A DNA stretch of 64,000 nt. Origin: Candidatus Aminicenantes bacterium. GTDB taxonomy: Bacteria; Acidobacteriota; Aminicenantia; Aminicenantales; Saccharicenantaceae. Under the pieces are notes generated by a model. It saw nothing but the letters and a program-made list of their open reading frames with translations. It was not told where the DNA came from and made no database searches. Shown piece by piece: positions 4,671 through 59,655 of this stretch (within the stretch, counting starts at the first letter, position 1; every line of letters begins with the position of its first letter). The stretch lies in contig CAWART010000020.1 in NCBI GenBank assembly GCA_963784525.1, positions 23,844 to 87,843 of the forward strand, written 5' to 3'. The position numbers and the translations under genes were made by a program.

Positions 4671-7214
4671 ATGCTCGAGGCCTACGATTCTCAGGCGAAG
4701 GAACGCGCGAAACTCGGCATCCCGCCGCTCCCTTTGAGCGCCGCGGAGACGGCGGAGGTCTGCGCGGCCCTCGAGTCCGCTGCGGGCGCGGACGGGGAGG
4801 CTCTCGTCGCCCTTCTCCGGGACAGGGTATCCCCGGGCGTCGATCCGGCGGCCAGGGTCAAGGCGGAATGGCTGGCGCGCGTCGCCCGGGGCGAGGTCGC
4901 CGCCCGGCCCATCCCCAGGAAGGACGCGGTCTTCCTGCTCGGGACGATGCTGGGGGGCTACAACGTCGCGCCGCTCGTCGCCCTGCTCGAGGACCGGGAA
5001 CTCGGCACCTCCGCGGCCGACGCCCTGAAGCGGACCATTCTCGTCTATGGCGCTTTCGATGCCGTCCTCGGGCTTTTAAAGCGCCAGCCGAACGCCCGGG
5101 CGGTCCTCGACTCGTGGGCCGCCGGCGAATGGTTTCTGTCCCGGCCGGCGTTCCCCGATGTCCTGACGTTCAAGGTCTTCAAGGTGGACGGCGAGATCAA
5201 CACGGACGATTTTTCTCCGGCCAAGCACGCCTCCACGCGTCCCGACATTCCCCTGCATGCCATGGCCATGGGGGAGACGCGTTTCCCCGGCGGACTCGCG
5301 GTCCTTCGCGAGTTCCGGGCGCAGGGCCACCGGGTCGCCTTCGCGGGCGACGTCGTCGGGACGGGCTCCTCTCGGAAATCGGCCTGCAATTCCGTGATGT
5401 GGCATATCGGCGAGGACATTCCGTTCGTCCCGAACAAACGCAGGGGCGGCGTCGTCCTGGGCGGACTCATCGCCCCCATCTTCTTCAACACGACCGAGGA
5501 TTCGGGGGGCCTGCCCATCCAGAGGGTGGACCTGGCGAACGTGCGGACAGGCGACAGCATCGTCCTCGACCTGCGGGCCGGCGAGATGCGCTCCGCGTCG
5601 GGCGACCGGCTCTCGAAGATCGAACTCTCCCCGGAGACGATCCGGGACGAATACAGGGCGGGCGGCCGGTTGAACCTCATCATCGGCCGGCAGTTGACCG
5701 ACAGGGCCCGGAAGGCGCTCGGGTTGGGCGCATCGGATATTTTTGCCCGGGTCGAAAGCCCGGCGCCGAAGCCCGGCCAAGGCTATTCGCAGGCCCAGAA
5801 GATCGTCGGCAAGGCGTGCGGCGTGCCCGGCGTTCTACCCGGCACCTCCTGCGAGCCGCGGATGACGACGGTCGGCTCCCAGGACACGACGGGGCCGATG
5901 ACGGCCGACGAGCTCAAAGAGCTGGCCTGCCTGGAATTCCAGGCCGACCTCTTCATGCAATCCTTCTGCCACACCGCGGCCTATCCGAAAGCGGCGGACG
6001 TCCGCATGCACAAGAGCCTTCCCGCCTTCATGATCGAACGCAAAGGCGTCGCCCTCAAGCCGGGGGACGGCGTCATCCATTCCTGGCTGAACCGCCTGCT
6101 CCTGCCGGATACGTGCGGCACGGGCGGGGATTCGCACACCCGGTTCCCCATCGGGCTGAGCTTCCCGGCGGGCTCGGGCCTGGTGGCCTTCGCCGGCGCC
6201 CTGGGGTTCATGCCCCTGGACATGCCCGAATCGGTCCTGGTCCGGTTCTCGGGAAAGCTCCGTCCGGGCGTGACGCTCCGCGACGCGGTCAACGCCGTCC
6301 CGTTGGCCGCCATCCGAAAGGGCCTGCTGACGGTCGCGAAAAAGGGCAAGAAGAACGTGTTCAACGGCCGTATCCTCGAGATGGAAGGATTGGAGGGACT
6401 GACCGTCGAGCAGGCCTACGAGCTGACCGACGCGTCCGCGGAACGGAGCGCGGCCGGAAGCGTCATCGCCCTCGAGCCGGCCAGGGTCGCCGCCTACCTG
6501 CGGAGCAACATCGCCCTGATGGGCCGGATGATCGCGGAGGGCTATCGCGACGCCGAGACGCTCGAAGTTCGCATCCGGGCCTGCGAAGCGTGGCTGAAGG
6601 ATCCCGTCCTCCTGAAAAGGGATGCCGGGGCCGGGTACGCCGCGGTCCTCGAGGTCGATCTGGACGCGATCACGGAGCCCGTCCTGGCCTGCCCGAACGA
6701 CCCGGACGACGTCAAGCCGCTGTCGGAGGTCTCCGGAGAACGCATCGACGAGGTCTTCATCGGCTCGTGCATGACGAACATCGGCCACTTCCGCGCAGCG
6801 GCCCGGGTCTTCGACAAGGCCGGCCCGCTGGGCCCCAGGGTCTGGATGACCCCGCCGACGAAGATGGACGCCGCCCAGCTGATGCGGGAAGGGCTCTATT
6901 CCATATATTCCCAGGCCGGAGCGCGGATGGAGATCCCCGGCTGCTCGCTCTGCATGGGGAACCAGGCCCGGGTCCGGCCCGGGGCGACCATCATATCGAC
7001 CTCCACCCGGAACTTCGACGACCGGATGGGGGACGGGGCCCGGGTCTTCCTGGGATCGGCCGAGCTGGCGGCGGTCGCGGCGCTCAAGGGCCGGCTTCCC
7101 TCGACGGACGAGTATTTCGCGGTCATCAAGGAACGGGTCCTGCCTTTCGCCGCCGACATCTACCGCTATCTCGAGTTCGATAAGATCAAGGACTTCTCCC
7201 TGGGATACCCGTGA
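4671..7214 (+). CDS. acnB: aconitate hydratase B (bifunctional aconitase 2 / 2-methylisocitrate dehydratase type)
   Basis: Track ORF 4650..7214. MLEAYDSQAKERAKLGIPPLPL matches the AcnB N-terminus (MLEEY... in E. coli, from memory). GGAGG lies 6 nt before the ATG at 4671. Aconitase Cys motifs are present: IGSCMTN and PGCSLCMGNQ. Confidence 0.93.
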   Translation: MLEAYDSQAKERAKLGIPPLPLSAAETAEVCAALESAAGADGEALVALLRDRVSPGVDPAARVKAEWLARVARGEVAARPIPRKDAVFLLGTMLGGYNVAPLVALLEDRELGTSAADALKRTILVYGAFDAVLGLLKRQPNARAVLDSWAAGEWFLSRPAFPDVLTFKVFKVDGEINTDDFSPAKHASTRPDIPLHAMAMGETRFPGGLAVLREFRAQGHRVAFAGDVVGTGSSRKSACNSVMWHIGEDIPFVPNKRRGGVVLGGLIAPIFFNTTEDSGGLPIQRVDLANVRTGDSIVLDLRAGEMRSASGDRLSKIELSPETIRDEYRAGGRLNLIIGRQLTDRARKALGLGASDIFARVESPAPKPGQGYSQAQKIVGKACGVPGVLPGTSCEPRMTTVGSQDTTGPMTADELKELACLEFQADLFMQSFCHTAAYPKAADVRMHKSLPAFMIERKGVALKPGDGVIHSWLNRLLLPDTCGTGGDSHTRFPIGLSFPAGSGLVAFAGALGFMPLDMPESVLVRFSGKLRPGVTLRDAVNAVPLAAIRKGLLTVAKKGKKNVFNGRILEMEGLEGLTVEQAYELTDASAERSAAGSVIALEPARVAAYLRSNIALMGRMIAEGYRDAETLEVRIRACEAWLKDPVLLKRDAGAGYAAVLEVDLDAITEPVLACPNDPDDVKPLSEVSGERIDEVFIGSCMTNIGHFRAAARVFDKAGPLGPRVWMTPPTKMDAAQLMREGLYSIYSQAGARMEIPGCSLCMGNQARVRPGATIISTSTRNFDDRMGDGARVFLGSAELAAVAALKGRLPSTDEYFAVIKERVLPFAADIYRYLEFDKIKDFSLGYP

Positions 7215-9073: not shown

Positions 9074-9193
9074 TCGCGCCGTTCGTCCCGTCCGCTTTCT
9101 TCCAAGGTTAGGCATCGCCTTCGAAGGACTCAGGGACGTCCTTCCGACAAGATGACCGGTTCGTTGTGAGAAACGAGAACGGACGAATAGCGC

Positions 9194-10132
9194 TTAGGCG
9201 GGACCAAAGATGTCGCCGGGACAGATATGACCGCCGAGGACGAAGGCGTGAGCGTCCATCTCGGGCTTGCCCTCGGGACGCAGGCGCTCGATGCGAAAGA
9301 GGGAGCCGTTGCCGCAGGCGACGGTGACGCCGGCTTTGTCAGCGGAGACGACCGTTCCCGGGCCGTGCGCTTCAATGCGTTCGATAAGGGGGAGGCCCTT
9401 GAGAAGTTGGATACGGACGCCGCTCACGAACGAATAGGCGATGGGCCAGGGGTCGAAGGCGCGCACCTTCCGGTCGACCGCTCCCGCGTCCGAGGTCCAA
9501 TCGACGAGGCCGTCCTCCTTGCGGAGTTTCGGGGCCAGGGTCGCTTTCGCGTGATCCTGGGGGACACGCCGCGACGCGTCGATCGTCGCGAGCGTCCTCT
9601 CCATCAGCCCGGCGCCGATCTCGGCCAGCCGCCCTTCGAGCTCGCGGGCGGACTCCCGGGGTCCGATGTCGGTGGCTTCCATGGCCAGGACGTCCCCTTC
9701 GTCCATGCGCTCGTTGAGCTCGAAGATGGTGACACCGGTCCTTGTCTCCCCCCGGAGGATGGCCCAGGCAACGGGCGAGGCGCCCCGGTACCGGGGCAGG
9801 AGCGAAAAATGGACGTTCAAAGAGCGGTGGCGGGGGAGGCCGATGACCGGGACGGGCATGATCTGTCCGTAGGCGGCGACGACATTGACATCGGGCCGGG
9901 CGGCCGCGAGCGTTTCCAGAAAGGCTTCGTCCTTCCGGACGCGGACAGGCTGGACGACGGGCAGGCCCTTTTCCGCGGCGAACCGTTTCACCGGACACGG
10001 CGTCAGCTTTCGGCCGCGGCCGGCGGGCCGGTCCGGCTGGGTGACGACGAGCTCGACGGAATGTCCCGCCGCGAGGAGGCGCCGGAGGGTCGGGAGGGCC
10101 GCTTCAGGGCTTCCGAAGAAGGCGATCCTCAT
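9194..10132 (-). CDS. fmt: methionyl-tRNA formyltransferase
   Basis: The conserved start MRIAFFGSPEAALPTL is at the internal ATG 10132..10130 of track ORF 9194..10369. HFSLLPRYRGASP motif. ATGA overlap with def. Confidence 0.93.
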   Translation of the reverse strand: MRIAFFGSPEAALPTLRRLLAAGHSVELVVTQPDRPAGRGRKLTPCPVKRFAAEKGLPVVQPVRVRKDEAFLETLAAARPDVNVVAAYGQIMPVPVIGLPRHRSLNVHFSLLPRYRGASPVAWAILRGETRTGVTIFELNERMDEGDVLAMEATDIGPRESARELEGRLAEIGAGLMERTLATIDASRRVPQDHAKATLAPKLRKEDGLVDWTSDAGAVDRKVRAFDPWPIAYSFVSGVRIQLLKGLPLIERIEAHGPGTVVSADKAGVTVACGNGSLFRIERLRPEGKPEMDAHAFVLGGHICPGDIFGPA

Positions 10133-50184: not shown

Positions 50185-51003
50185 TCAGAACGGGACGGCG
50201 ATCCCCCAGACGAGCTTGTGGAAGCTTTGTTTCGCGCCGAGGGCGGTCGTTTCGAGGTCTGCCCAGAGGCTCCCGCCGAGGGAGAGTTCGAGCCAGGGGA
50301 CGACCTTCAGGCGGACGATCAGCTCTCCGGAGAAGGCCTGGCCCCGGGAGAAGGCGACGGCCGTTTGCATGCACGTCTGAAGATGGACGCTCAGGCCTTC
50401 ATCGGACCAGAGGCTCGCCCGAAGCCCGTATTCCTGGCGGAGGCGTTCGCCGGAAAGGTCCAGGCCGGCCCGCTGGTTGGAATGGTGGAAGAACCAGGTG
50501 AAGGGCTCGATATAGAAATGCCGCCCCTCGTAAGGAATGCCGATCCCGACGTAGTTGCGGTTCGTGTAATAGGGCTTCCCCCGCAGGACGCTCTGATGTT
50601 CGGAATCGTGGTCGCTGTCGTGACCGATGATGACGACGAGGTTCCGGAGCAGGGCCTGGCGGAGATGGAAGTGCCAGTCGAACTTCGTCCTTTGCGTGCC
50701 GTCGTCGTGGGTGACCAGCTGGGCCATCAGGGTCGTCGTCGGCGTGATGGGGAAATAATCCTGGAATCCCATGTTCCAGCGGTCGGTCGGGCCGCTGAGG
50801 TCGTTGTAGCTCGGGAACGTGGACGGGGCGAGGTAGTGGAAAAAGATGTCCCCGTGGAGGACGACCTTTCGGGAGACCGAAAGGGAGTTCCCGTTGAGCC
50901 CCGGGCGGTGGATGAAGATTTCGGTGGCCCGGGCGCTCCCGGCCGCGAGGGCCGCGAGGGCGGCCCAGAGCCCGATCCGCGCGACGGAGGACCTAGAAAT
51001 CAT
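50185..51003 (-). CDS. hypothetical outer-membrane beta-barrel protein
   Basis: 272-aa ORF. Signal peptide ...AALAALAAGSARA, His/Asp-rich segment GHDSDHDSEH, C-terminal ...LVWGIAVPF. 11-nt overlap with the upstream receptor gene. Confidence 0.6.
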   Translation of the reverse strand: MISRSSVARIGLWAALAALAAGSARATEIFIHRPGLNGNSLSVSRKVVLHGDIFFHYLAPSTFPSYNDLSGPTDRWNMGFQDYFPITPTTTLMAQLVTHDDGTQRTKFDWHFHLRQALLRNLVVIIGHDSDHDSEHQSVLRGKPYYTNRNYVGIGIPYEGRHFYIEPFTWFFHHSNQRAGLDLSGERLRQEYGLRASLWSDEGLSVHLQTCMQTAVAFSRGQAFSGELIVRLKVVPWLELSLGGSLWADLETTALGAKQSFHKLVWGIAVPF

Positions 51004-53746
51004 AGGACAACCCCAATCGGAAGGTCCTGGGCGACTGGATCTCCGTGGCGTAGCGCAGGGGGAACTCCGGCCGGGTGCGCGCGTCCTCTCCGGTCGCCAG
51101 GTGCTGGTTGAAGATGTTGTACCCGTCCAGGATGAGCCGGAGGATCCCGGGGCCCGCCGCGAACTCTTTCTGGACCCGGACGTCGTTGGTCATGTTGAAC
51201 TCGTAGCGGGAGACGCCTCGCGGATGGGCCATGACGAGGAACGGGCCCTGGCGGAAGCCGGTGACGGCGATCTCCCGGGCGAAAGGCTGGCCGTCGTAAT
51301 ATTTCAGGATATATCCGAGCCGGAAGCCCAGCGGGAGACGCAGGGCGAATCCGATACGGCCCGTATAGGCGCGATCGAACCGGAGCCGTCCCCGGGCGTT
51401 GACCAGCGTGTTCGGGTCGTCGTAGAGGGAGCCGACGACGCCGTCGTCGTTCTCGCGCGCCGTATTCCCCGGGCTCGTCGTGCCGACGCACTGCATGGCC
51501 GTGAGGGAGACGAAAAAGCCGAATCGGGACGACGTCCGTTTCGTCAGGACGAGATCCAGGCCTTCGTATCGGGAGTACCGTTCGTCCCCGCCGGGGTTCG
51601 TGAGGAGGGCGAAGTCCTGCCCCAGGGTCGCCGCGTCCTGCTCGAACAGCGTGAACGTCAGGTCGTCGTAGTTCCCGGGGACGCGGTCGTCGCCGATGTC
51701 CGTGATCGTGCGTGGCGAATAGGAGGCGAACGGGACGCCCGTGTTCAGGGTTTCGACAAGGTCCCGGGTCCTGCGAATGAATCCGGTCAGGCCGATGGTG
51801 AGATCCCTTTGGGTTCGATGCATGAGCCCGATCGAAAGCTCGTCGGTCCGGGGCCTCCTGATCTCCGGATCGATCGCGGCGTACAGCGGGCCCTCGCGGC
51901 GCACGAGGGCTCCGGCCTCGCCCGCCTCGAATGACCCGTCGCCGTTCCCATCGGTCCAGGCGTAGACAAGCCCGCCCGGAGCGTCCGGATTACCATAGGC
52001 CAGCCAGGAGAGGGGGAGACCGTGGTAGTAACGGCCGGCAAATATCCTGAGCGAGGTCTGCCCCGAACGGTTCAAGGGAAGCACGAAGCCGAGTCTCGGC
52101 GCGACATGGAGCCAGTCGATGGCCGATGCTCCCGCGCCGGCCCGAGCCCGGGTGTAAGAGGCATGGGCACCGAGCGAGACGGAGACGAGGTTCGGAAAGG
52201 TCAGGGTCTCCTGGATGAACGCCGCGCCCTCGAGGGACGTCTCGCGGTGTTGGGCCGGAGCGCTGAATCTGACGACCTCGTAGGGGACGCCGTTCAAGTA
52301 ACGCAGGAGGATATCCCCGGCGACGTCCGGTCGCGTGCTCGCGGATGCCCGACGGACCTCCGCGCCGTATTCGAACCGGTGGCTCGCCCGGCCGGTCATG
52401 ACCGCGAGGTCCCCGCGGATGAAGGCCGTCAGGAGCTCCCGGCGGCCGTTCCCGGCGGCGGATGACGGTCCGGAGATGCCGCCCGTCAGGTCTATCCCGG
52501 CCTGCCCGACGGCGCCTTCCTGGAGCCGGGAAGCGAGGTCCGCCCGGTTGAATCCGGCCCCGGCCGCTAGGACATGCCCCGGCGCGAGCCGGAACGCGCC
52601 CTCGACCTGCAGGATATTGGCCGTGTTCTTCCGGTCGAGGGTCGAGAGGAACGGCACCCGGCGCCCCGCGCCGGCCGCGGAATTCTTCGCGATCTGTCCG
52701 GTCCACAGGAACGACCAGGAGCTTCGCCCGGCCTCGTATCTCAGCCCCAGAAGTCCCGTGGTCACGTCCCCCCGGTCGTCCTCCGCGAACTCGGCCGGGT
52801 CCCGGACGATCCTGAGCGTCGAAAAGGACGTGATGAAGAAGAGCTTCCCGGGGACGACCGGCCCCGAAAGATCGAAATGGACGTTCTGAGAGCTCTTGAG
52901 CGTATCGGCTTCGAAGATGCCCTCTTTTTCGAGAGCGGGCGTGATGTTCGAGCCGACGAGCCTCCGGTCTCCGGTGAATACGGAGAACGAGCCTTCGAAC
53001 GAGTCCCCGCCCCCCTTCGTGACGAGATCGAGGGTCCCGCCCGGGGAGAGAATCCCGCCGGGTGGCCGGCGTTCTCGAGCCGGACCGTCCGGAAGCTGAA
53101 CAGGTCGGGGACGTAGAAGGGAAGGCCTCCGTCGTAGGGGTCCGTGACGCTCATCCCGTTGAGCCGGTACTCGTTCTGGGTCCACGACGTCCCGCCCCGG
53201 GCGCTGAAGAGGGCCGGAAGGTCCGACCTCATTCCGCCGACGTCGATACGGTCGGTCGTCGCCGACATATCCTGATTCTCGATGAGGGACCAGATCGACC
53301 CGCCCGAGGGGAGGAGCCTCATCTGGTCCGTATCGATCGTCGTCGCCGAGGCCGGTGATCCGGGATCGCGGGACAAGGAGACGATGACGAGCTCTTTCCG
53401 GGCGCCCGAAGAAAGAAGCGTCAGCCTGACCAGGACCGTCTCGAACGCCCCGACGTCGACGGGGCCCGCGGAGAGCGGACCTTCGCCGTCCCGCCGGCAG
53501 GAGATCATGGTAACGGCCCTGGGAAAGCCCGGCGATACCGAAGGCGCCGCGAGCGTTCGTCAGGGCCTCCGCGGTCCGAACGCCGTCCGGGGTCGAGAGG
53601 GTCATCCGGACGCCGGCGACGCCGCTCCCCTCCGGTCCGTGAACGGTTCCCCGGAGCGCGGCGAGGTTTCGGGCATCGGCGTCCCCGACCAGGGCGAGGC
53701 CCGACATCAGGAGAAGGGCGATTCCGAAGCGATCGAATTTCATCAT
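50993..53746 (-). CDS. TonB-dependent receptor-like outer-membrane protein with an N-terminal carboxypeptidase-regulatory-like domain (Oar-like); the interior carries a compensated frameshift pair
   Basis: Signal peptide MMKFDRFGIALLLMSGLALVG. LRGTVHGPEGSGVAGVRMTL...NARGAFGIAGLSQGRY (CarboxypepD_reg pattern). Plug-like segment in the alternative frame (ORF 52762..53508). Large barrel ending ...FRLGLSYDF. Confidence 0.8.
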   Translation of the reverse strand: MMKFDRFGIALLLMSGLALVGDADARNLAALRGTVHGPEGSGVAGVRMTLSTPDGVRTAEALTNARGAFGIAGLSQGRYHDLLPAGRRRSALRGPRRRRGVRDGPGQADASFFGRPERARHRLLVPRSRITGLGDDDRYGPDEAPPLGRVDLVPHRESGYVGDDRPYRRRRNEVGPSGPLQRPGRDVVDPERVPAQRDERHGPLRRRPSLLRPRPVQLPDGPARERRPPGGILSPGGTLDLVTKGGGDSFEGSFSVFTGDRRLVGSNITPALEKEGIFEADTLKSSQNVHFDLSGPVVPGKLFFITSFSTLRIVRDPAEFAEDDRGDVTTGLLGLRYEAGRSSWSFLWTGQIAKNSAAGAGRRVPFLSTLDRKNTANILQVEGAFRLAPGHVLAAGAGFNRADLASRLQEGAVGQAGIDLTGGISGPSSAAGNGRRELLTAFIRGDLAVMTGRASHRFEYGAEVRRASASTRPDVAGDILLRYLNGVPYEVVRFSAPAQHRETSLEGAAFIQETLTFPNLVSVSLGAHASYTRARAGAGASAIDWLHVAPRLGFVLPLNRSGQTSLRIFAGRYYHGLPLSWLAYGNPDAPGGLVYAWTDGNGDGSFEAGEAGALVRREGPLYAAIDPEIRRPRTDELSIGLMHRTQRDLTIGLTGFIRRTRDLVETLNTGVPFASYSPRTITDIGDDRVPGNYDDLTFTLFEQDAATLGQDFALLTNPGGDERYSRYEGLDLVLTKRTSSRFGFFVSLTAMQCVGTTSPGNTARENDDGVVGSLYDDPNTLVNARGRLRFDRAYTGRIGFALRLPLGFRLGYILKYYDGQPFAREIAVTGFRQGPFLVMAHPRGVSRYEFNMTNDVRVQKEFAAGPGILRLILDGYNIFNQHLATGEDARTRPEFPLRYATEIQSPRTFRLGLSYDF

Positions 53747-53815
53747 AAAGCTCACAATTCTTACTTGTTTGCTCCGGGGATGTCAAGGCCGCCGGGGGCC
53801 TCTCCGGCGCGCGGC

Positions 53816-53844
53816 TTAACATGCCGTTCCGGATGCGCTATAAT
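53816..53844 (+). promoter_or_regulatory. sigma70-type promoter for lpdA
   Basis: TTAACA (53816..53821), 17-nt spacer, TATAAT (53839..53844). AAGGAAGGA RBS before the ATG at 53888. Confidence 0.55.
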
Positions 53845-53887
53845 CCATCGGTCATCATCGAACCGACAGGAAACAAAGGAAGGACCG

Positions 53888-55283
53888 ATGGATAATAAAA
53901 AGGATATCGCGATCATCGGAGGCGGGCCGGGCGGCTATATGGCCGCCCTGCGGGCCGCTCAGCTGGGCAGGAAGGTCGTCCTGTTCGAAGAGGACAGGAT
54001 CGGCGGGACGTGCATGAATTACGGCTGTATCCCGACCAAGTACCTCCTCCATCAGACCAAGATCCTGAAAGAGGTCCGGGAAACGAGGACCGTCACCGGG
54101 GGCGGGCGTCGGCCTCGATTGGCCGGCCGTCCAGTCAGGACGCCAGTCGGTCGTGGACCGCCTTGTCCGCGGCATCGAATTCCTCCTGCAGAAGGGCGGG
54201 GTCGGAGATCGTCAAGGGGCGCGCCCGGCTCGAAGACGCCGGACGGATCGCCGTCGAAACGGCGGACGGGCCGAAAGCGTATCTATGCCGCCGCCGTCAT
54301 CCTCGCCACGGGAAGCCGGGCCGCGTCACTGCCCTTCCTGGCGCCGAACGGAGCGGAGGTCGTCACCAGCACCGAGGCGCTCGCGTTTCCGGAGGTCCCC
54401 AAGAGCCTCCTCGTCATCGGGGCCGGGGCCATCGGGCTCGAGATGGGGTCCATCTACCGGCGGCTGGGGACGGACGTCACCGTCCTGGAGATCCTGCCGG
54501 GCATCACCCCCGGGAGCGACAAGGAAACGGCCGCCCGGCTCGAGCGGACCCTGAAAAAGCAGGGCCTCAAGATCCTGACGCAGATGGGCATCGCGACGGC
54601 GGAGGTCGCGCCGGGGAAGGTGACCCTCAAGGGGACAGGGCTGAAGACCAACGCCCCGTTCGAATACACGGCCGACCGCGTGCTTCTGGCGGCCGGCCGC
54701 CGGCCCAATTCCGCCGGCCTTGCGCCGGACGGGCATGCTGACGCTCGGCCGGGGCGGCTTCGTCACGGTCAACGAGCGGCTCGAAACCGGGACTCCCGGC
54801 GTTTATGCCATCGGCGACCTCATCGGGGGCAAGCTCCTGGCCCACAAGGCTTATCATGACGCCATCGTCGCCGTGGAGAACGCCTGCGGCATGAATAGGA
54901 CCGTCGATTATCGGGCCCTCCCCATGGCCGTGTTCACCGACCCGGAGTTCGCCTCCGTCGGGCTGACCCAGGAAGAGGCGGACGCGAAGGGGATCAAGGT
55001 CCGGTCCGGCGTCTTCCCGCTCCAGGCCAGCGGCCGCGCGTTGACCATGGACAGCCTCGACGGCCTGGTCAAGGTCCTGGCCGACGAGAAGGACCGTATC
55101 ATCGGCGCCCACATCGTCGCCCCCGGCGCGAGCGAAATGATCCATGAGCTGGCGCTGGCCGTCTCCCGGGAGGCCACGCTCGGCGAGATCGGAGGGCTTA
55201 TCCATATCCACCCCACGCTCTCCGAGACCATCGGGGAGGCGGCCCTCAAGGCGAAGAACGAAGCGCTCCACATCCTGAATTGA
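53888..55283 (+). CDS. lpdA: dihydrolipoyl dehydrogenase, disrupted by four apparent +1 indels
   Basis: DIAIIGGGPGGYMAALRAAQLG...GGTCMNYGCIPTK (redox disulfide), ILATGS, LLVIGAGAIGLEMG, GVYAIGD, and the C-terminal HIHPTLSE dimerisation motif. The pieces lie in track ORFs 53282..54859, 54153..54554, 54010..54741 and 54720..55283. Confidence 0.9.
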
Positions 55284-55306
55284 CACACCCTTCCGCCGGG
55301 CATAAA

Positions 55307-57436
55307 ATGGCCGCACCTATCATGAGCGGCGAGGGTTTCGTTTACGGGAAGGGCTTCCACGGCGAGGAGCGCGACGGTCTCCGCCGCTTCCGCTGGATGT
55401 CCGACGCCGCCGAACTGGCGATCCCCGCGGGTTCCATCGCGCGGGCCCGCTATCTGACCATCCCGATCTTCACCGAGGTCCGGGACTTCGGCCAGGTCCT
55501 GACCATCCGGCGCGGCGGCCGCGTCCTCGCCGAATTCGCGCTCGTCGATCAGTGGAACGATTATGACATCCCGCTGGCTCCGGAGGGCGGCGCGGAGGCG
55601 GGGGATCCGGCCGGATCCGCCGTGATCCTGACGCTCTCGTTGAACAAGCTTTTCCCCCCCGAGCATTATCCGGGAGACACGCGCCGGCTCGGGGCCCGGA
55701 TCGGCCCTCCCGAGCTCCGCGACGAGACGTGGGTTCCCCGGATCCTTCCGATCTTCCAATACGGGAAAGGGTTCTACGACGAGGAGAGGCAGGGACTTTC
55801 CTCGTTCCACTGGATGTCCGCATCGGCCGAGCTGTTGGCCCGGGCGGGGGCCGTCGCACGGGCCCGCTACCTGTCGCTCCCGGTCTTCACGGAGATCCCG
55901 GACCTCGGCCAGGTCCTGACCGTCCGGCGCGGCGATCGGATACTCGCCGAATTCGCGCTCCTCGATCAATGGAACGAGTATGACATCCCCCTGGTCCCGG
56001 AGGGCGGCAAGGATGACGGGATCGCGGCCGGAGACATCGTGACCCTGACGCTCTCGTTGAACAAACAGGTTCCCCGGGAGTGCTATCCGGACGATCCGCG
56101 TCCGCTCGGCGTCCGGATCGGCCCGCCCGAGCTCCACAGCGACGAGGGGCTCCATCGGGCCCTCATGGTCTCTCCCCAGAAGTCCGGAGCCTTCGCTTTC
56201 GGGCCGGGGTTCCACAAGGAAGAGGTCGACGAGTTCTCCCGCTTCCGCTGGATGTCCGACGCGGCCGAACTGACGATCGCGGCGGATGAGGCCTCCCGGA
56301 ACCGTTTCCTGACCATCCCCCTCCTCTCGGAATTCAAGAACTTCAGCCAGGTCCTGACGGTTCGCCGGGGCGGCCGGCTTCTCGCCGAGTTCGCGCTCCT
56401 CGATCAATGGAATTATTACGACGTGCCTCTCGCCCCCGAGGACGGCCCGGAGGACGGGGCTCCGGCCGATGCCGCCGTGACACTGACGCTCTCCCTGAAC
56501 AAGCCCGTCCCCCGGAAATATTTTCCCGACGACCCGCGCCGGCTCGGCGTCCGGGTCGGTCCGCTCGAGCTCCATGACGACGCGGAGCTCCACCGGAACC
56601 TCCTGGACTTCCACCGGAACGCCGTGCTGAACTACCGGGAGATGACGTCGGGCAGGGCGGAGCTCGCGTCCTACCCCCTCAACCTGGGCATCGACATCCA
56701 CGGCAAATGCAACATCAGCCCGCACTGCGTCTATTGTCTCTGGGACAGCATGAAGGTCCTCGAAGGGGCCAACGTGGATGTCCCGGTCGACGCCCGGACG
56801 CTCAAGGGCTACGGCCCGTTCTTCACCTCGGCCCGGACGCTCGTCAACTGTTCGTTCGGCGAGCCCCTGCTCCACCCGAAGTTCACGGAGCTCATGGAAT
56901 TCTGCGCGCGGAACAAGAAGATCGTCGAGCTCGCGACCAACGGCCAGGCGTTCACCGAGAGAACGATCCGGGCCCTGGTCGGCAGGTCCGTCTACCTTTA
57001 CATCTCTCTCGACGCCGCCTCGAAGGCGACCTACGCCAAGATCCGAAACGATCGTTGGGACGAGATCATCCCCGGGCTCCGCCGGCTCGGGGAGGAACGG
57101 CGGAAGGCGGGGAACCTGCCGCGGATCTTCATGGTCTTCATCCCGATGCGGGTCAATCGGGACGACCTCGAGGAATATTTCAAGCTCTGCGTCATCGTCG
57201 GCGCCGACGCCCTCGTCCTCAGGCCGATGCTCTTCCTGACCGAGCCGAACATCGTCGAGGAAAGGGGAGGGCACGTTTTCGATTATGAGAAGGAAATGCT
57301 CAACCGGCGGGAGGTCGAGGAGGTCATCCGCAAGGCCGGGGAATTCTCGAAGCTCTATGGAGTCCCCGTGGCCAGCCAGTTCGACTTCGGGCTGATGAAG
57401 GAACCCCGCGTCGGGAGAAAGGAAGACGCTTCATGA
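55307..57436 (+). CDS. radical SAM enzyme with three N-terminal tandem modules of unknown function
   Basis: Track ORF 55280..57436 (first ATG in frame at 55307). Residues about 19-432 form three homologous modules. The core has GKCNISPHCVYC, SFGEPLLHP, ELATNGQ and YISLDAAS, typical of SPASM-type radical SAM cores. Confidence 0.85.
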   Translation: MAAPIMSGEGFVYGKGFHGEERDGLRRFRWMSDAAELAIPAGSIARARYLTIPIFTEVRDFGQVLTIRRGGRVLAEFALVDQWNDYDIPLAPEGGAEAGDPAGSAVILTLSLNKLFPPEHYPGDTRRLGARIGPPELRDETWVPRILPIFQYGKGFYDEERQGLSSFHWMSASAELLARAGAVARARYLSLPVFTEIPDLGQVLTVRRGDRILAEFALLDQWNEYDIPLVPEGGKDDGIAAGDIVTLTLSLNKQVPRECYPDDPRPLGVRIGPPELHSDEGLHRALMVSPQKSGAFAFGPGFHKEEVDEFSRFRWMSDAAELTIAADEASRNRFLTIPLLSEFKNFSQVLTVRRGGRLLAEFALLDQWNYYDVPLAPEDGPEDGAPADAAVTLTLSLNKPVPRKYFPDDPRRLGVRVGPLELHDDAELHRNLLDFHRNAVLNYREMTSGRAELASYPLNLGIDIHGKCNISPHCVYCLWDSMKVLEGANVDVPVDARTLKGYGPFFTSARTLVNCSFGEPLLHPKFTELMEFCARNKKIVELATNGQAFTERTIRALVGRSVYLYISLDAASKATYAKIRNDRWDEIIPGLRRLGEERRKAGNLPRIFMVFIPMRVNRDDLEEYFKLCVIVGADALVLRPMLFLTEPNIVEERGGHVFDYEKEMLNRREVEEVIRKAGEFSKLYGVPVASQFDFGLMKEPRVGRKEDAS
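55334..56572 (+). repeat. intragenic tandem triplication (modules at about 55334..55717, 55751..56134 and 56189..56572)
   Basis: Offsets of 417 nt and 438 nt. Modules 1 and 2 share identical runs such as GGCCAGGTCCTGACC, CTCGCCGAATTCGCGCTC and CTGACGCTCTCGTTGAACAA. At the protein level each has FRW/FHW-MS, RYL.IP, QVLT.RRG, LAEFAL.DQWN.YD.PL, LTLSLNK and D.R.LG.R.GP. Confidence 0.9.
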
Positions 57437-57849
57437 ACGCGCCCGCCGACCCGCGCGCGCCCGCCGGTGACCCCGAAGACCTGGGCGGGGGGAACCGGCC
57501 GCTCTGCCGCGAACCGTGGATGAGCTTCTACATCCTGAGGCGCGGCGTCATGCCGTGCTGTTACGGCTTTCCGGTGGACGAGTTCGTCACCGATTACGCC
57601 CGCGTCTGGAATTCCCCGAAGCTCCAGGAGATCAGGAGATATCTGGCCAAAGGGAAGCTCAGCCCCTATTGTCTCCAGTGCCTGAGCTGTCCCATCGTCC
57701 AGAGGGAGCTGGCAAAGAAGAACGGCGCGTCCGGGGATCCCGACGCCCCCGTCGTCGCCCCCCCGCGGCGGCCGTTGGTCCTGCGCCTCATCAACCGGGC
57801 TCTCTTCGGACTCCCGTCAAAGACTCCTGAAGGCCTTCAAGCGCCGCTG
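57433..57849 (+). CDS. small Cys-rich SPASM/twitch-like protein, either a separate coupled ORF or the detached C-terminus of the radical SAM enzyme; 3' end uncertain
   Basis: The ATG at 57433 forms an ATGA overlap with the upstream stop. PLCREPWMSFYILRRGVMPCCYG...VWNSPKLQEIRRYL...SPYCLQCLSCP matches the auxiliary-cluster domain pattern. The track ORF runs on to 58503, antisense through the convergent gene, which I do not believe. Alternative-frame stops lie at 57830 and 57849. Confidence 0.55.
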
Positions 57850-57915
57850 ACGACCGGTCCCGGAAGGCCTCATCCTTTTGGGAAGCGGGCGGCGGATCTG
57901 TGTCCTCCGAGGCCC

Positions 57916-59547
57916 TCACCTGGCGACATAACCGAGCGACTTGAGCATCTCCCCGGCCTTGTCGTCGAGAGCGACATCCTTTTTGGTCCTGAGGATCTCC
58001 CGGACAAAGACATCCAGGCGGGCCTTGAGGGCGAGCGCCTCTGCGGAGAGACCGTCCTCGAATGTCACGGCCGACCTCTCGTCGGGGTCCTCGTCGTGAT
58101 CGAAGTATTCATAGCGGCCGGTTGCCGGGCACAGGACGAGATGTTTCGAGCGTTCGAGGATCCCGAACCTGTCCTGGACGGCTTCGGGCCTGTATGTTTC
58201 CTGGAGGACGGCCGTATCCGTGCCGGGCGCGAGATCCAGGAGGTTTCGCCCCCGGAACGAAGCCGGCGCTTTGAGTCCGCCGAGCCCGGCAAGGGTGGGT
58301 GCGACGTCGAGAAGGGTCACGGGCTCCGCCCTTCGGAGCCCCTTCGCCCGGGCCTTCGGGAGGCGGACGATGAGCGGGACCTTCATGTAGACCGGGTTGA
58401 GAAAGTGGACGTGGCCGATGTGAGGGTCGCCGAACGCGGTAAGGTACTCTCCGAGCCCCTCGCCGTGGTCGCCCACGGCCAGGATCGCCGTCCTGTCGTA
58501 TAGCCCGAGCTTCCGGAGCTCGTCGAAAAGCCTCCCGAGCTCGCCGTCCATGAATTCGACCTCCCGCCGGTAACCGTCCCGGGCGGCCTCGACGGGGACG
58601 ATCAGTTTTCCCCGGAGGACCAGCGTGACGGAGCGAGGCGCGTCCGGGCAGGAGATCTCGATCTCCGAGCGGCCCTTGAGGAAGGTCACCCCGTCGTTCC
58701 GGCGGAAGACCGAATCTTCCGGGAACCGTACGGAGACGGCGTTCGCGCCCGCGGGCTGGAGGGCGAGCGTGTCCATCCGGGCGGCGAATCGGCCGGCCTC
58801 GACAGGATAGGGGTTGGCGATCTCGAGGACGAGCCTGTTCACGCCCTTGTCGAGGTCAAGACGCGTCGCGATCGTCGCCCCCCTCTCGAGCGCGAAGGCT
58901 CCCAGGGACCTCCCGTTGAGGCCGACCTTCAGATCGTCCGGCGCGCCCGGCGGGGCATAGGGATCATGGGGATCGGAATAGTGGACCCAGAGGAAGAACT
59001 TCTTTGACCTGTTGGCCTCGAGCCACGGAAAGACCCTGGCGTTGAGCTCGTCGGCGGAGAGATACCAGCGGTCGGCGGGGAAAGCGTCCTCGTAGGTCTC
59101 GAAACCCCCGTCGAGCCCGAATTCGGAGGTCAGGACGCCGAGGCTGACGAACGCCGCGGTCGCGAAGCCCTTCCGCTTGAACAGCTCGGCGATGGCCGGA
59201 CGGGCCCCGGTCCTCCGGACGGCCTGGCCGTTGTTGTAGTTCTCGAGCGCGTGGGGCGCGTCGGAAAAGAACATCGAGGCGTGGGAGGGGAGCGTGATGG
59301 GGATGAGGGTGTTCGCGTTCTCGAAGAGCGTCCCCTCCGCGGCGAGCCCGTCGAGGACGGGGGTCAGGGCGTTTCCCGGGCGATAGGCGCCGACGAAATC
59401 CGAACGGGTCGTATCCAGGGTGATGAGGACGACGTTGGAGGGGGCGGAGCGATCCCGGCAGGCGGAGGCGGAAACGAAGAGGACCGCGCCGGCCAGGGCG
59501 AGGGCCCTCCGGCGGGAGGAACTTCGGGGGAGTCTGGGTCGGGACAT
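57916..59547 (-). CDS. sulfatase-like hydrolase/transferase (alkaline phosphatase superfamily) with a Thr-type nucleophile motif and a large internal insertion
   Basis: Start MSRPRLPRSSSRRRALALAGAVLFVSASAC (ATG 59547; an upstream alternative is at 59601). VVLITLDTTRSD metal site, TLPSHASMFF in place of C/SxPxR, HYSDPHDPY, AVGDHGEGLGE. About 130 aa are inserted between HDPY and YRREVEFMD. Confidence 0.85.
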   Translation of the reverse strand: MSRPRLPRSSSRRRALALAGAVLFVSASACRDRSAPSNVVLITLDTTRSDFVGAYRPGNALTPVLDGLAAEGTLFENANTLIPITLPSHASMFFSDAPHALENYNNGQAVRRTGARPAIAELFKRKGFATAAFVSLGVLTSEFGLDGGFETYEDAFPADRWYLSADELNARVFPWLEANRSKKFFLWVHYSDPHDPYAPPGAPDDLKVGLNGRSLGAFALERGATIATRLDLDKGVNRLVLEIANPYPVEAGRFAARMDTLALQPAGANAVSVRFPEDSVFRRNDGVTFLKGRSEIEISCPDAPRSVTLVLRGKLIVPVEAARDGYRREVEFMDGELGRLFDELRKLGLYDRTAILAVGDHGEGLGEYLTAFGDPHIGHVHFLNPVYMKVPLIVRLPKARAKGLRRAEPVTLLDVAPTLAGLGGLKAPASFRGRNLLDLAPGTDTAVLQETYRPEAVQDRFGILERSKHLVLCPATGRYEYFDHDEDPDERSAVTFEDGLSAEALALKARLDVFVREILRTKKDVALDDKAGEMLKSLGYVAR

Positions 59548-59655
59548 CGTTGCGGCCGTTTCGCGCGAGCGTATTATGGAGAATGCGTCGGGGATTGTCA
59601 AAACGATTGCATTGCCTCCCGGTATTGACTACAATTTTCCCGCCCGAGAGATATC

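Follow-up and report, generated by a model that had tools for sequence, protein, structure and literature searches.

What kind of enzyme is encoded where three consecutive copies of an unrecognized protein module are placed in front of a radical S-adenosylmethionine (SAM) core? The question is raised by a gene in a 64,000-nt stretch of DNA from a Candidatus Aminicenantes bacterium (assembly GCA_963784525.1, contig CAWART010000020.1), termed here the window, with all coordinates counted from its first letter. The gene lies at 55307..57436 of the forward (+) strand as an intact open reading frame (ORF) of 709 aa, and a first-pass annotation made from the sequence alone had singled it out as a candidate novel system. 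We find that it encodes the large, catalytic subunit of a two-subunit enzyme, whose other subunit is a small Cys-rich protein encoded directly downstream, and that its modules resemble carbohydrate-binding modules (CBMs); we tentatively favor a cytoplasmic radical SAM enzyme that is directed to a glycan.

The radical SAM core (56591..57427, + strand; E=1e-151 to the family core hidden Markov model, HMM) begins with a linker helix, FHRNAxLNxREM, and continues into a partial barrel. Residues 468-627 (56708-57187, +) match PF04055 Radical_SAM at 38.7 bits, above the gathering cut-off of 29.5, which places the protein in the radical SAM superfamily; PF04055 is the only Pfam domain in this ORF. The three cysteines, predicted from sequence to bind the cluster, are read by translation in the motif CNISPHCVYC (56708..56737, +) as Cys468-x5-Cys474-x2-Cys477, a two-residue insertion relative to the canonical Cx3Cx2C of viperin in our alignment, and the Cx5Cx2C spacing is kept in 88 of 94 family cores. 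RadicalSAM.org lists Cx5Cx2C as a rare variant, and the superfamily admits spacings of this kind (PMC9477430). Megacluster-4-10 of the same resource has the ligand spacing of the present core, a likeness by spacing alone, and the SPASM/twitch subgroup is placed not there but in Megacluster-1-1 (PMC9477430).

The C-terminal 260 aa had been described in the first-pass annotation as a SPASM-type radical SAM core, of which the radical SAM part stands and the SPASM part has to be moved. Neither Pfam nor NCBIfam detects a SPASM domain in the 709-aa ORF, which lacks the same-chain C-terminal extension with 7-8 cysteines of PF13186 and TIGR04085; the SPASM-like portion is found in the next ORF. When searched against the PDB, the family core profile retrieved TYW1 (5e-7), BlsE (6.5e-7), BtrN (3e-6), viperins and MoaA, which are twitch-type or small-molecule enzymes, and among these matches there was no anaerobic sulfatase-maturating enzyme (anSME), PqqE, CteB or SuiB, nor any peptide-modifying SPASM enzyme. 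Judged from these comparisons, the enzyme belongs to the radical SAM superfamily, to no curated NCBIfam family and not to the canonical SPASM enzymes, and would work most like a twitch-type enzyme.

The small-subunit gene (57433..57850, +) overlaps the stop codon of the large ORF by 4 bp through its own ATG (ATGA, 57433-57436), and the same overlap is seen in seven split loci. As written in the window, the small ORF is 356 aa long and reads through to 58503, antisense across a sulfatase-like gene. This is the effect of a single-base insertion, a C at 57824..57824 (+), which is probably an assembly error, and whose deletion gives exactly the 138-aa homolog P0197 with a stop at 57848-57850; the two translations are identical up to LPSK, after which P0197 ends in ILKAFKRR. 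The protein matches PF13186 SPASM marginally (22.2 bits against a cut-off of 21.5), and its homologs, 122-153 aa long, form 231 stand-alone clusters, called “SPASM domain-containing protein” by NCBI where a name is given; the best 120 of the 231 are all stand-alone and measure 100-153 aa. Cys25, Cys42, Cys43, Cys80 and Cys86 are conserved in at least 99% of the homologs and a sixth cysteine, C83, in 47%, giving the pattern C25-x12-G-x4-C43 ... C80-x5-C86, the first part of which corresponds to the opening half of the SPASM signature.

A SPASM domain binds two auxiliary [4Fe-4S] clusters, and a twitch is a truncated SPASM-like unit that binds one. By the count of conserved cysteines, 3-4 for a twitch and 7-8 for SPASM (PMC9477430), the five invariant cysteines of the small unit fall between the two classes. 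The NCBIfam model N_Twi_rSAM gives 27 bits against a cut-off of 170, and the small-subunit profile retrieved only spurious PUF-repeat matches from the PDB. We infer that the small unit is twitch-like and, most simply, holds one auxiliary cluster.

What ties this small protein to the core is its position in other genomes. In 11 of 43 representative clusters the core carries it as a C-terminal fusion; among 76 genome loci, 32 have the fusion and 42 a separate ORF immediately downstream, the remaining two loci ending at a contig edge. In Aminicenantes-type lineages it always stands alone, and it is the sole conserved neighbor of the core across all lineages examined. The first-pass annotation had listed the small Cys-rich ORF as merely a linked gene, but because it is fused or adjacent in 74 of 76 loci, it is a component of the enzyme rather than a bystander. 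We therefore have little doubt that the two ORFs encode subunits of one enzyme. The auxiliary-cluster domain thus appears to have been split off into a translationally coupled subunit that stays obligatorily linked to the core. All homologous large subunits share a common C-terminal end point, and a six-frame scan of the window gave no further copy of the module, the core or the small subunit.

In front of the core lie three modules, all of type A and all on the + strand: module 1 (55322..55729, E=2e-47), module 2 (55739..56146, E=9e-45) and the core-adjacent module 3 (56177..56584, E ~1e-45), the E-values referring to a family module HMM built from alignments that contain these three modules themselves. 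Each is ~136 aa long and together they make up 58% of the protein, which agrees with the earlier estimate of about 60 percent. The tandem triplication at offsets of 139 and 146 aa, as first reported, is far beyond chance: an ungapped BLOSUM62 self-comparison scores 457, 420 and 435 at offsets of 139, 146 and 285 aa and at most 31 at any other. The signature read from the three copies likewise agrees with the family consensus, G.GW/F..EE......FRWM ... SQVLTV ... LNK..P...P.D.R.LG. Pairwise identity among the copies is 57-63% at the amino acid and 69-74% at the nucleotide level, with the same codon used at 68-79% of identical residues. On account of these identities we judge the duplication to be old, not recent as the first-pass annotation had proposed, even if its copies 1 and 2 are indeed the closest pair (63% aa, 74% nt; sisters at a bootstrap of 0.84).

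How the three modules arose can be followed in the relatives. A homolog search returned 51 proteins with lengths clustering at ~418, 550, 705, 845 and 942 aa, and an iterated module HMM found one copy in 19 of them, two in 13, three in 14, four in 3 and five in 2, so the copy-number variation that had been suspected is real and spans 1-5. The modules fall into two deep clades, type A, which is always core-adjacent, and type B, which is distal, in arrays of the types A, AA, AAA (the window), BA, BAA, BABA and BBBBA. Two full-length homologs, P0002 and P0003 (70% and 69% identity, 100% coverage), have three modules each, and relatives at 75-83% identity by BLAST local alignment have one or two. 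In a tree of 108 modules from the 51 homologs, the module that lies next to the core in relatives is the ortholog of module 3 (74% identity between module 3 and module 2 of P0005, bootstrap 0.98). Module 3 represents the ancestral copy and is the ortholog of the only module in those relatives that have just one. Modules 1 and 2 have only 54-65% identity to any module of the nearest relatives; therefore the extra copies arose within the lineage of the window itself, independently of the two- and three-module relatives. Such repeated, lineage-specific expansions agree with a selective pressure for avidity toward a repetitive ligand.

The family is not a one-off of this genome, as the wording of a candidate system might suggest. 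Among 185,579 species, each represented by one genome, 140 genomes were found to contain it. By record titles, most of the best 80 of these come from Acidobacteriota, namely from Aminicenantes, Thermoanaerobaculia, Vicinamibacteria and Holophagales; some 18 of the closest loci are titled “uncultured Eubacteriales” metagenome-assembled genome, which is probably a mislabel, and a few are labelled otherwise. On this evidence the family looks essentially confined to Acidobacteriota. One assembly, GCA_040960625.1, contains two fully syntenic copies of the locus (L001 and L003) on different large contigs, in the order Fe-S oxidoreductase, hypothetical protein, outer-membrane protein, lpdA, radical SAM gene, small subunit, sulfatase-like gene and nuoA-G. 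One copy encodes a one-module protein (P0009) and the other a four-module protein (P0019, 45% identity to the window protein), and two Aminicenantes populations have probably been binned together.

What the module is can be approached through its fold. It had been called unassignable to any named domain, and no Pfam or NCBIfam model covers it, with no Pfam match even at E<=10 and nothing meaningful from a search of the module profile against PDB sequences (best E 0.83). AlphaFold2 run on module 3 with a 39-sequence module alignment gave an all-β model of high confidence (predicted local distance difference test, pLDDT, 93; predicted template modeling score, pTM, 0.86). Foldseek matched this model to jelly-roll domains in the PDB with a probability of ~1.0, template modeling scores of ~0.44-0.57 and 7-14% identity. 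The top ranks are mostly filled by iota-toxin (binary-toxin) Ib pore chains, ranks 8-46 include CBM6, CBM51, CBM11, the N-terminal β-sandwich of carbohydrate esterase family 2 (CE2) and the sugar-binding domain of Fbs1, and MAM domains were also matched. According to the model, the module would be a β-jelly-roll; its fold class is clear, and a close solved relative was not found in the PDB. The structure prediction and Foldseek search that had been suggested as a check thus returned a confident jelly-roll with CBM-like matches at scores of about 0.5.

A second view of the module comes from the proteins that carry it. An exhaustive profile search over 1.84 billion representatives found it in 4,415 proteins at E<=1e-3 and in 539 at <=1e-10; a single protein can have as many as 10 copies. 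Among the best 150 module-bearing proteins, 43 belong to the radical SAM family, 40 of these having the modules at the N-terminus; 34 have at least six transmembrane (TM) segments and a C-terminal array, 54 show other architectures and 19 are short fragments. Pfam identified PMT_2 in 15 and Glyco_transf_22 (GT22) in 2 of the 108 proteins outside the radical SAM family, along with glycosyltransferases (GTs) of the GT1/GT4 and GT2 types, several methyltransferases including the FkbM type, SGNH/GDSL and BcsB domains, two sulfotransferases and two alkaline-phosphatase-type “Sulfatase” domains. Two module-bearing proteins show weak Pfam CE2_N matches, and an archaeal one is annotated as “ArnT family glycosyltransferase”. 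One chain, P0156 (985 aa), joins a GT4 domain, the module, a Cx5Cx2C core and SPASM. The first-pass annotation had placed a similar pattern in accessory β-sandwich-like regions of polysaccharide-modifying transferases, a comparison borne out both by the predicted fold and by hosts that include GT-C-type and other glycosyltransferases, methyltransferases and sulfotransferases, on which the module mostly forms tandem arrays. In fold and in host proteins the module corresponds to what defines the CBM functional class, a jelly-roll appended to carbohydrate-active enzymes, and we put the chance that it is a glycan-binding unit at about even.

From these parts a working model can be assembled. The partial barrel of the large subunit would bind the SAM-cleaving [4Fe-4S] cluster through Cx5Cx2C, and the 138-aa small subunit would supply a twitch-like auxiliary Fe-S site. 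The module array would bind a repetitive or lipid-linked envelope glycan and tether the core there, with module copy number tuning avidity. The core could then abstract hydrogen from a sugar residue while the auxiliary cluster serves as a conduit for the electron, and the sugar would be oxidized, epimerized or decarboxylated in the manner of BtrN and BlsE. Taken as a two-subunit, cytoplasmic, glycan-directed radical SAM enzyme, this is the reading we lean toward, while holding it only tentatively. The step from glycan binding to sugar-directed chemistry is less secure than the binding, and the boldest version, in which the array delivers radical C-H chemistry to an assembled envelope polysaccharide in the cytoplasm with a core and twitch on two polypeptides, the first family of its kind, seems to us rather doubtful.

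Several observations weigh against a glycan-directed enzyme. The CBM-like fold is generic at scores of ~0.5 and 7-14% identity, and jelly-rolls serve protein binding too. The GT-C arrays are probably periplasmic, whereas the radical SAM enzyme is necessarily cytoplasmic, and therefore their ligands need not match. No glycan gene is conserved beside the pair across all lineages, and the genes that flank the pair in the window, lpdA and the nuo operon, have housekeeping roles. The GT4 fusion P0156 is distant from the window protein (25% identity, E=7e-20 across module and core). The core similarities in the PDB are weak and partial (E ~1e-6), and AlphaFold2 modeled the core and linker of a natural fusion, P0051, poorly (mean pLDDT 62, pTM 0.44). 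Finally, the best partial matches of the core in NCBIfam are to models of protein or cofactor maturases, namely TIGR04317 (2e-17), TIGR04311, ScmF and the mycofactocin maturase.

Those last matches, together with the Pfam SPASM match of the partner ORF and the fact that jelly-rolls such as MAM and toxin receptor-binding domains bind proteins, are the case for an enzyme of the SPASM/twitch class that matures proteins or peptides, similar to anSMEs, tungsten-enzyme maturases or maturases of ribosomally synthesized and post-translationally modified peptides (RiPPs), with modules that bind protein. The matches cover only the first ~185 core residues at no more than 63 bits, where the cut-offs are 265-400; even the closest model, TIGR04317, scores 63.4 bits against 380 over positions 6-189 of 349, and all of the maturase scores lie 5-10 times under the family cut-offs. 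The PDB comparison points elsewhere as well, having retrieved no peptide-modifying SPASM enzyme, and the other hosts of the module are overwhelmingly glycan enzymes. The first-pass annotation had already noted that no RiPP-like precursor, peptidase or transporter accompanies the gene. This holds across the window and 76 related loci, where we found no precursor-like ORF, RiPP recognition element (RRE), peptidase or transporter, no RRE-type domain by Pfam and no conserved protein partner except the small subunit. A RiPP maturase is rejected on this basis, and the broader maturase class is in our view unlikely.

We consider it similarly unlikely that the substrate is a small molecule, nucleotide sugar or cofactor, with modules that localize the enzyme, scaffold it (e.g., to a membrane glycan-assembly complex) or oligomerize it, even if the affinities of the core to BlsE, BtrN, MoaA, TYW1 and viperin are of this kind. 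The housekeeping flanks and the single copy per genome locus would suggest a core metabolic role, and the predicted secondary structure sets the N-terminal modules apart from the core by a helical linker. A pure scaffold is hard to square, however, with 1-5 module copies among close relatives; on other hosts the module occupies the usual place of substrate-binding CBMs, and there are no co-conserved pathway genes.

A sulfatase maturase comes to mind because the radical SAM gene and its SPASM-like partner adjoin a PF00884 protein. This sulfatase-like gene (57916-59601, - strand, intact) converges on the small subunit and is kept in that arrangement in 24 loci, every one of them in the Aminicenantes-like set L007-L047. 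The more distant loci L049-L086 lack it, as do the Vicinamibacteria and Thermoanaerobaculia loci that retain the radical SAM pair and some Aminicenantales loci. In our alignment the protein has T-L-P-S-H where solved sulfatases have (C/S)-x-P-x-R, and T-x-P-(S/A)-H is seen in most of 31 neighbor homologs; as there is neither a Cys nor a Ser that could be converted, a relationship of the anSME type is very unlikely. No anSME family is among the NCBIfam matches of the core at E<=0.01, and the convergent genes are not co-transcribed. The Thr/His motif and the lineage-restricted synteny lead us to discard an anSME for this gene as a very improbable idea. The linkage pointed out in the first-pass annotation is therefore real as adjacency and fails as a functional clue of the anSME kind, being lineage-specific and lacking a formylglycine motif. 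The protein itself is likely a Thr-nucleophile phospho- or sulfo-ester enzyme of the alkaline phosphatase superfamily, and its N-terminus (LFVSASAC) resembles a lipoprotein signal.

Frame disruptions in the window raise the question of whether the locus is sound. At least four affect conserved genes within ~7 kb (50993-55283 and 57824): besides the extra C, lpdA is frameshifted at least once near 54690-54733, and an outer-membrane β-barrel gene has two disruptions, near 53510-53529 and 52978-53062. A mis-assembled repeat or a decaying, frameshift-split pseudogene is nonetheless extremely improbable, because the 709-aa ORF is intact and collinear with the independent assemblies of P0002 and P0003, its repeats are diverged (57-63%) rather than collapsed or duplicated reads, the small ORF stands alone in all of its best 120 clusters, and the large-subunit homologs share their end point. 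Since the radical SAM and sulfatase-like genes are intact amid these indels, the indels look like assembly errors, not pseudogenes, which suggests caution with ORF boundaries elsewhere in the window.

The start of the large subunit carries a small ambiguity of its own. The mechanical ORF start is a TTG at 55280 and the first ATG is at 55307; the latter (MAAPIM) is conserved as MAA..M in the closest homologs P0002-P0006, and the public gene call P0001, of identical sequence, starts at the ATG at 55322. We use ATG 55307 while regarding the choice between the two, five codons apart, as uncertain. Within the 23-nt spacer between lpdA and the radical SAM gene, a near-consensus σ70-like site (TTGACA-17-TAAAAT, 11/12) is seen at 55280-55308 (+), a consensus match only, whose second hexamer overlaps the ATG at 55307; if this site is functional, translation must start at 55322. 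A terminator scan of the window gave terminator-like sites without enrichment over shuffled sequences.

Turning to the neighborhood, lpdA can be set aside as a functional partner and taken as housekeeping synteny: its product is a genuine dihydrolipoyl dehydrogenase (a match to TIGR01350 above cut-off), and the linkage is confined to Aminicenantes-like loci. Recurrent but non-universal neighbors of the pair include a GT4 in four loci, a glycoside hydrolase family 38 (GH38) α-mannosidase in two, LpxK with the lipid A acyltransferase LpxL in three, and a 288-aa protein bearing the same module in four. A protein that has 8-12 TM segments and ends in an F5/8-type-C (discoidin) domain occurs in ten loci in several arrangements. 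These proteins are ~800 aa long, for example L035:4651-7056 (-), L052:3081-5600 (-) and L016:5062-7512 (-), with seven more loci, and their membrane part is matched by no Pfam or NCBIfam model; possibly they are unrecognized GT-C-like glycosyltransferases. On the contig of the GT4 fusion P0156 (L087, 33% GC) there are also genes for GT-C-like membrane proteins, a GDSL-like protein and a lectin-like protein. The contig further encodes a second, module-less radical SAM/SPASM protein (5355-6887, -) and part of a third core that belongs to the same family (9124-9486, -), a hint that several radical SAM steps take place within a single glycan cluster of this low-GC organism. The fusion and the recurrent neighbors link the radical SAM enzyme directly with glycan enzymes and speak for the glycan-directed reading. 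At another locus, a DncV-like nucleotidyltransferase and SAVED-domain pair of the type found in cyclic-oligonucleotide-based antiphage signaling systems (CBASS) lies just downstream of a Vicinamibacterales radical SAM pair (L004:15517-17846, -), beside a phage-type integrase, and looks like an unrelated mobile island.

How does the enzyme compare with systems already described? BtrN, the 2-deoxy-scyllo-inosamine dehydrogenase (PDB 4M7T), BlsE, the cytosylglucuronate decarboxylase (PDB 7VOB), and MoaA are alike in having a radical SAM partial barrel and, C-terminal to it, a single Cys-rich unit for an auxiliary cluster. In the PDB profile search they rank among the best matches, weak and partial as these are (E 6.5e-7 to 3e-5), and they act on carbohydrate-type substrates, as proposed for the present enzyme. 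They differ in their canonical Cx3Cx2C, covalent twitch, absence of CBM-like modules and small-molecule substrates, whereas the present enzyme has Cx5Cx2C, a separate five-Cys auxiliary polypeptide and 1-5 jelly-roll modules before the core. To our knowledge, carbohydrate-acting radical SAM enzymes work on small molecules, such as aminoglycoside and nucleoside antibiotics, and not on polysaccharides, and we know of no radical SAM enzyme with CBM-type targeting modules.

The SPASM maturases (anSME, TIGR04317, TIGR04311, ScmF and MftC) share partial core matches and the marginal SPASM match of the partner ORF, but the auxiliary unit here has five conserved cysteines instead of their 7-8 (as defined in PMC9477430), and the present family comes without a gene for a target protein or peptide. 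CBM6, CBM51, CBM11, the CE2 N-terminal domain and Fbs1 share the jelly-roll fold with the module, whose arrays sit on glycan-active enzymes; unlike them, the module has no sequence similarity to known CBMs (7-14%), has its own signature (GW..E......FRW ... D.R.LG) and is covered by no Pfam or CAZy-type family, and here it is carried by a cytoplasmic Fe-S enzyme, not by a secreted hydrolase. A literature search returned nothing on this radical SAM family, nor a characterized counterpart that combines a variable array, the rare Cys spacing and a split auxiliary subunit. The two outcomes that would have made the locus ordinary, a module that maps to a well-characterized domain and an architecture of three modules plus radical SAM core with a known substrate, were thus not encountered. 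As most of the more than 700,000 radical SAM proteins are uncharacterized (PMC9477430), a novel architecture by itself is no more than a moderate surprise.

The interest lies instead in possible polymer-directed radical glycan chemistry and in the naming of a widespread module. Whatever the substrate, the obligate split auxiliary subunit and the Cx5Cx2C core are useful corrections to annotation. If the enzyme is indeed directed to a glycan, it would represent a new class of polysaccharide-tailoring chemistry, and it would give a function to an unnamed jelly-roll module that is present in more than 4,400 clusters, on GT-C and other glycan enzymes of both bacteria and archaea. It would also provide a natural series, from one to five modules and from split to fused auxiliary subunits, in which to follow the evolution of avidity and subunit architecture. 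Acidobacteriota are abundant and poorly cultured bacteria of soils and sediments, whose envelope and exopolysaccharide biology is largely unknown, and the family described here appears to be a marker trait of this phylum.

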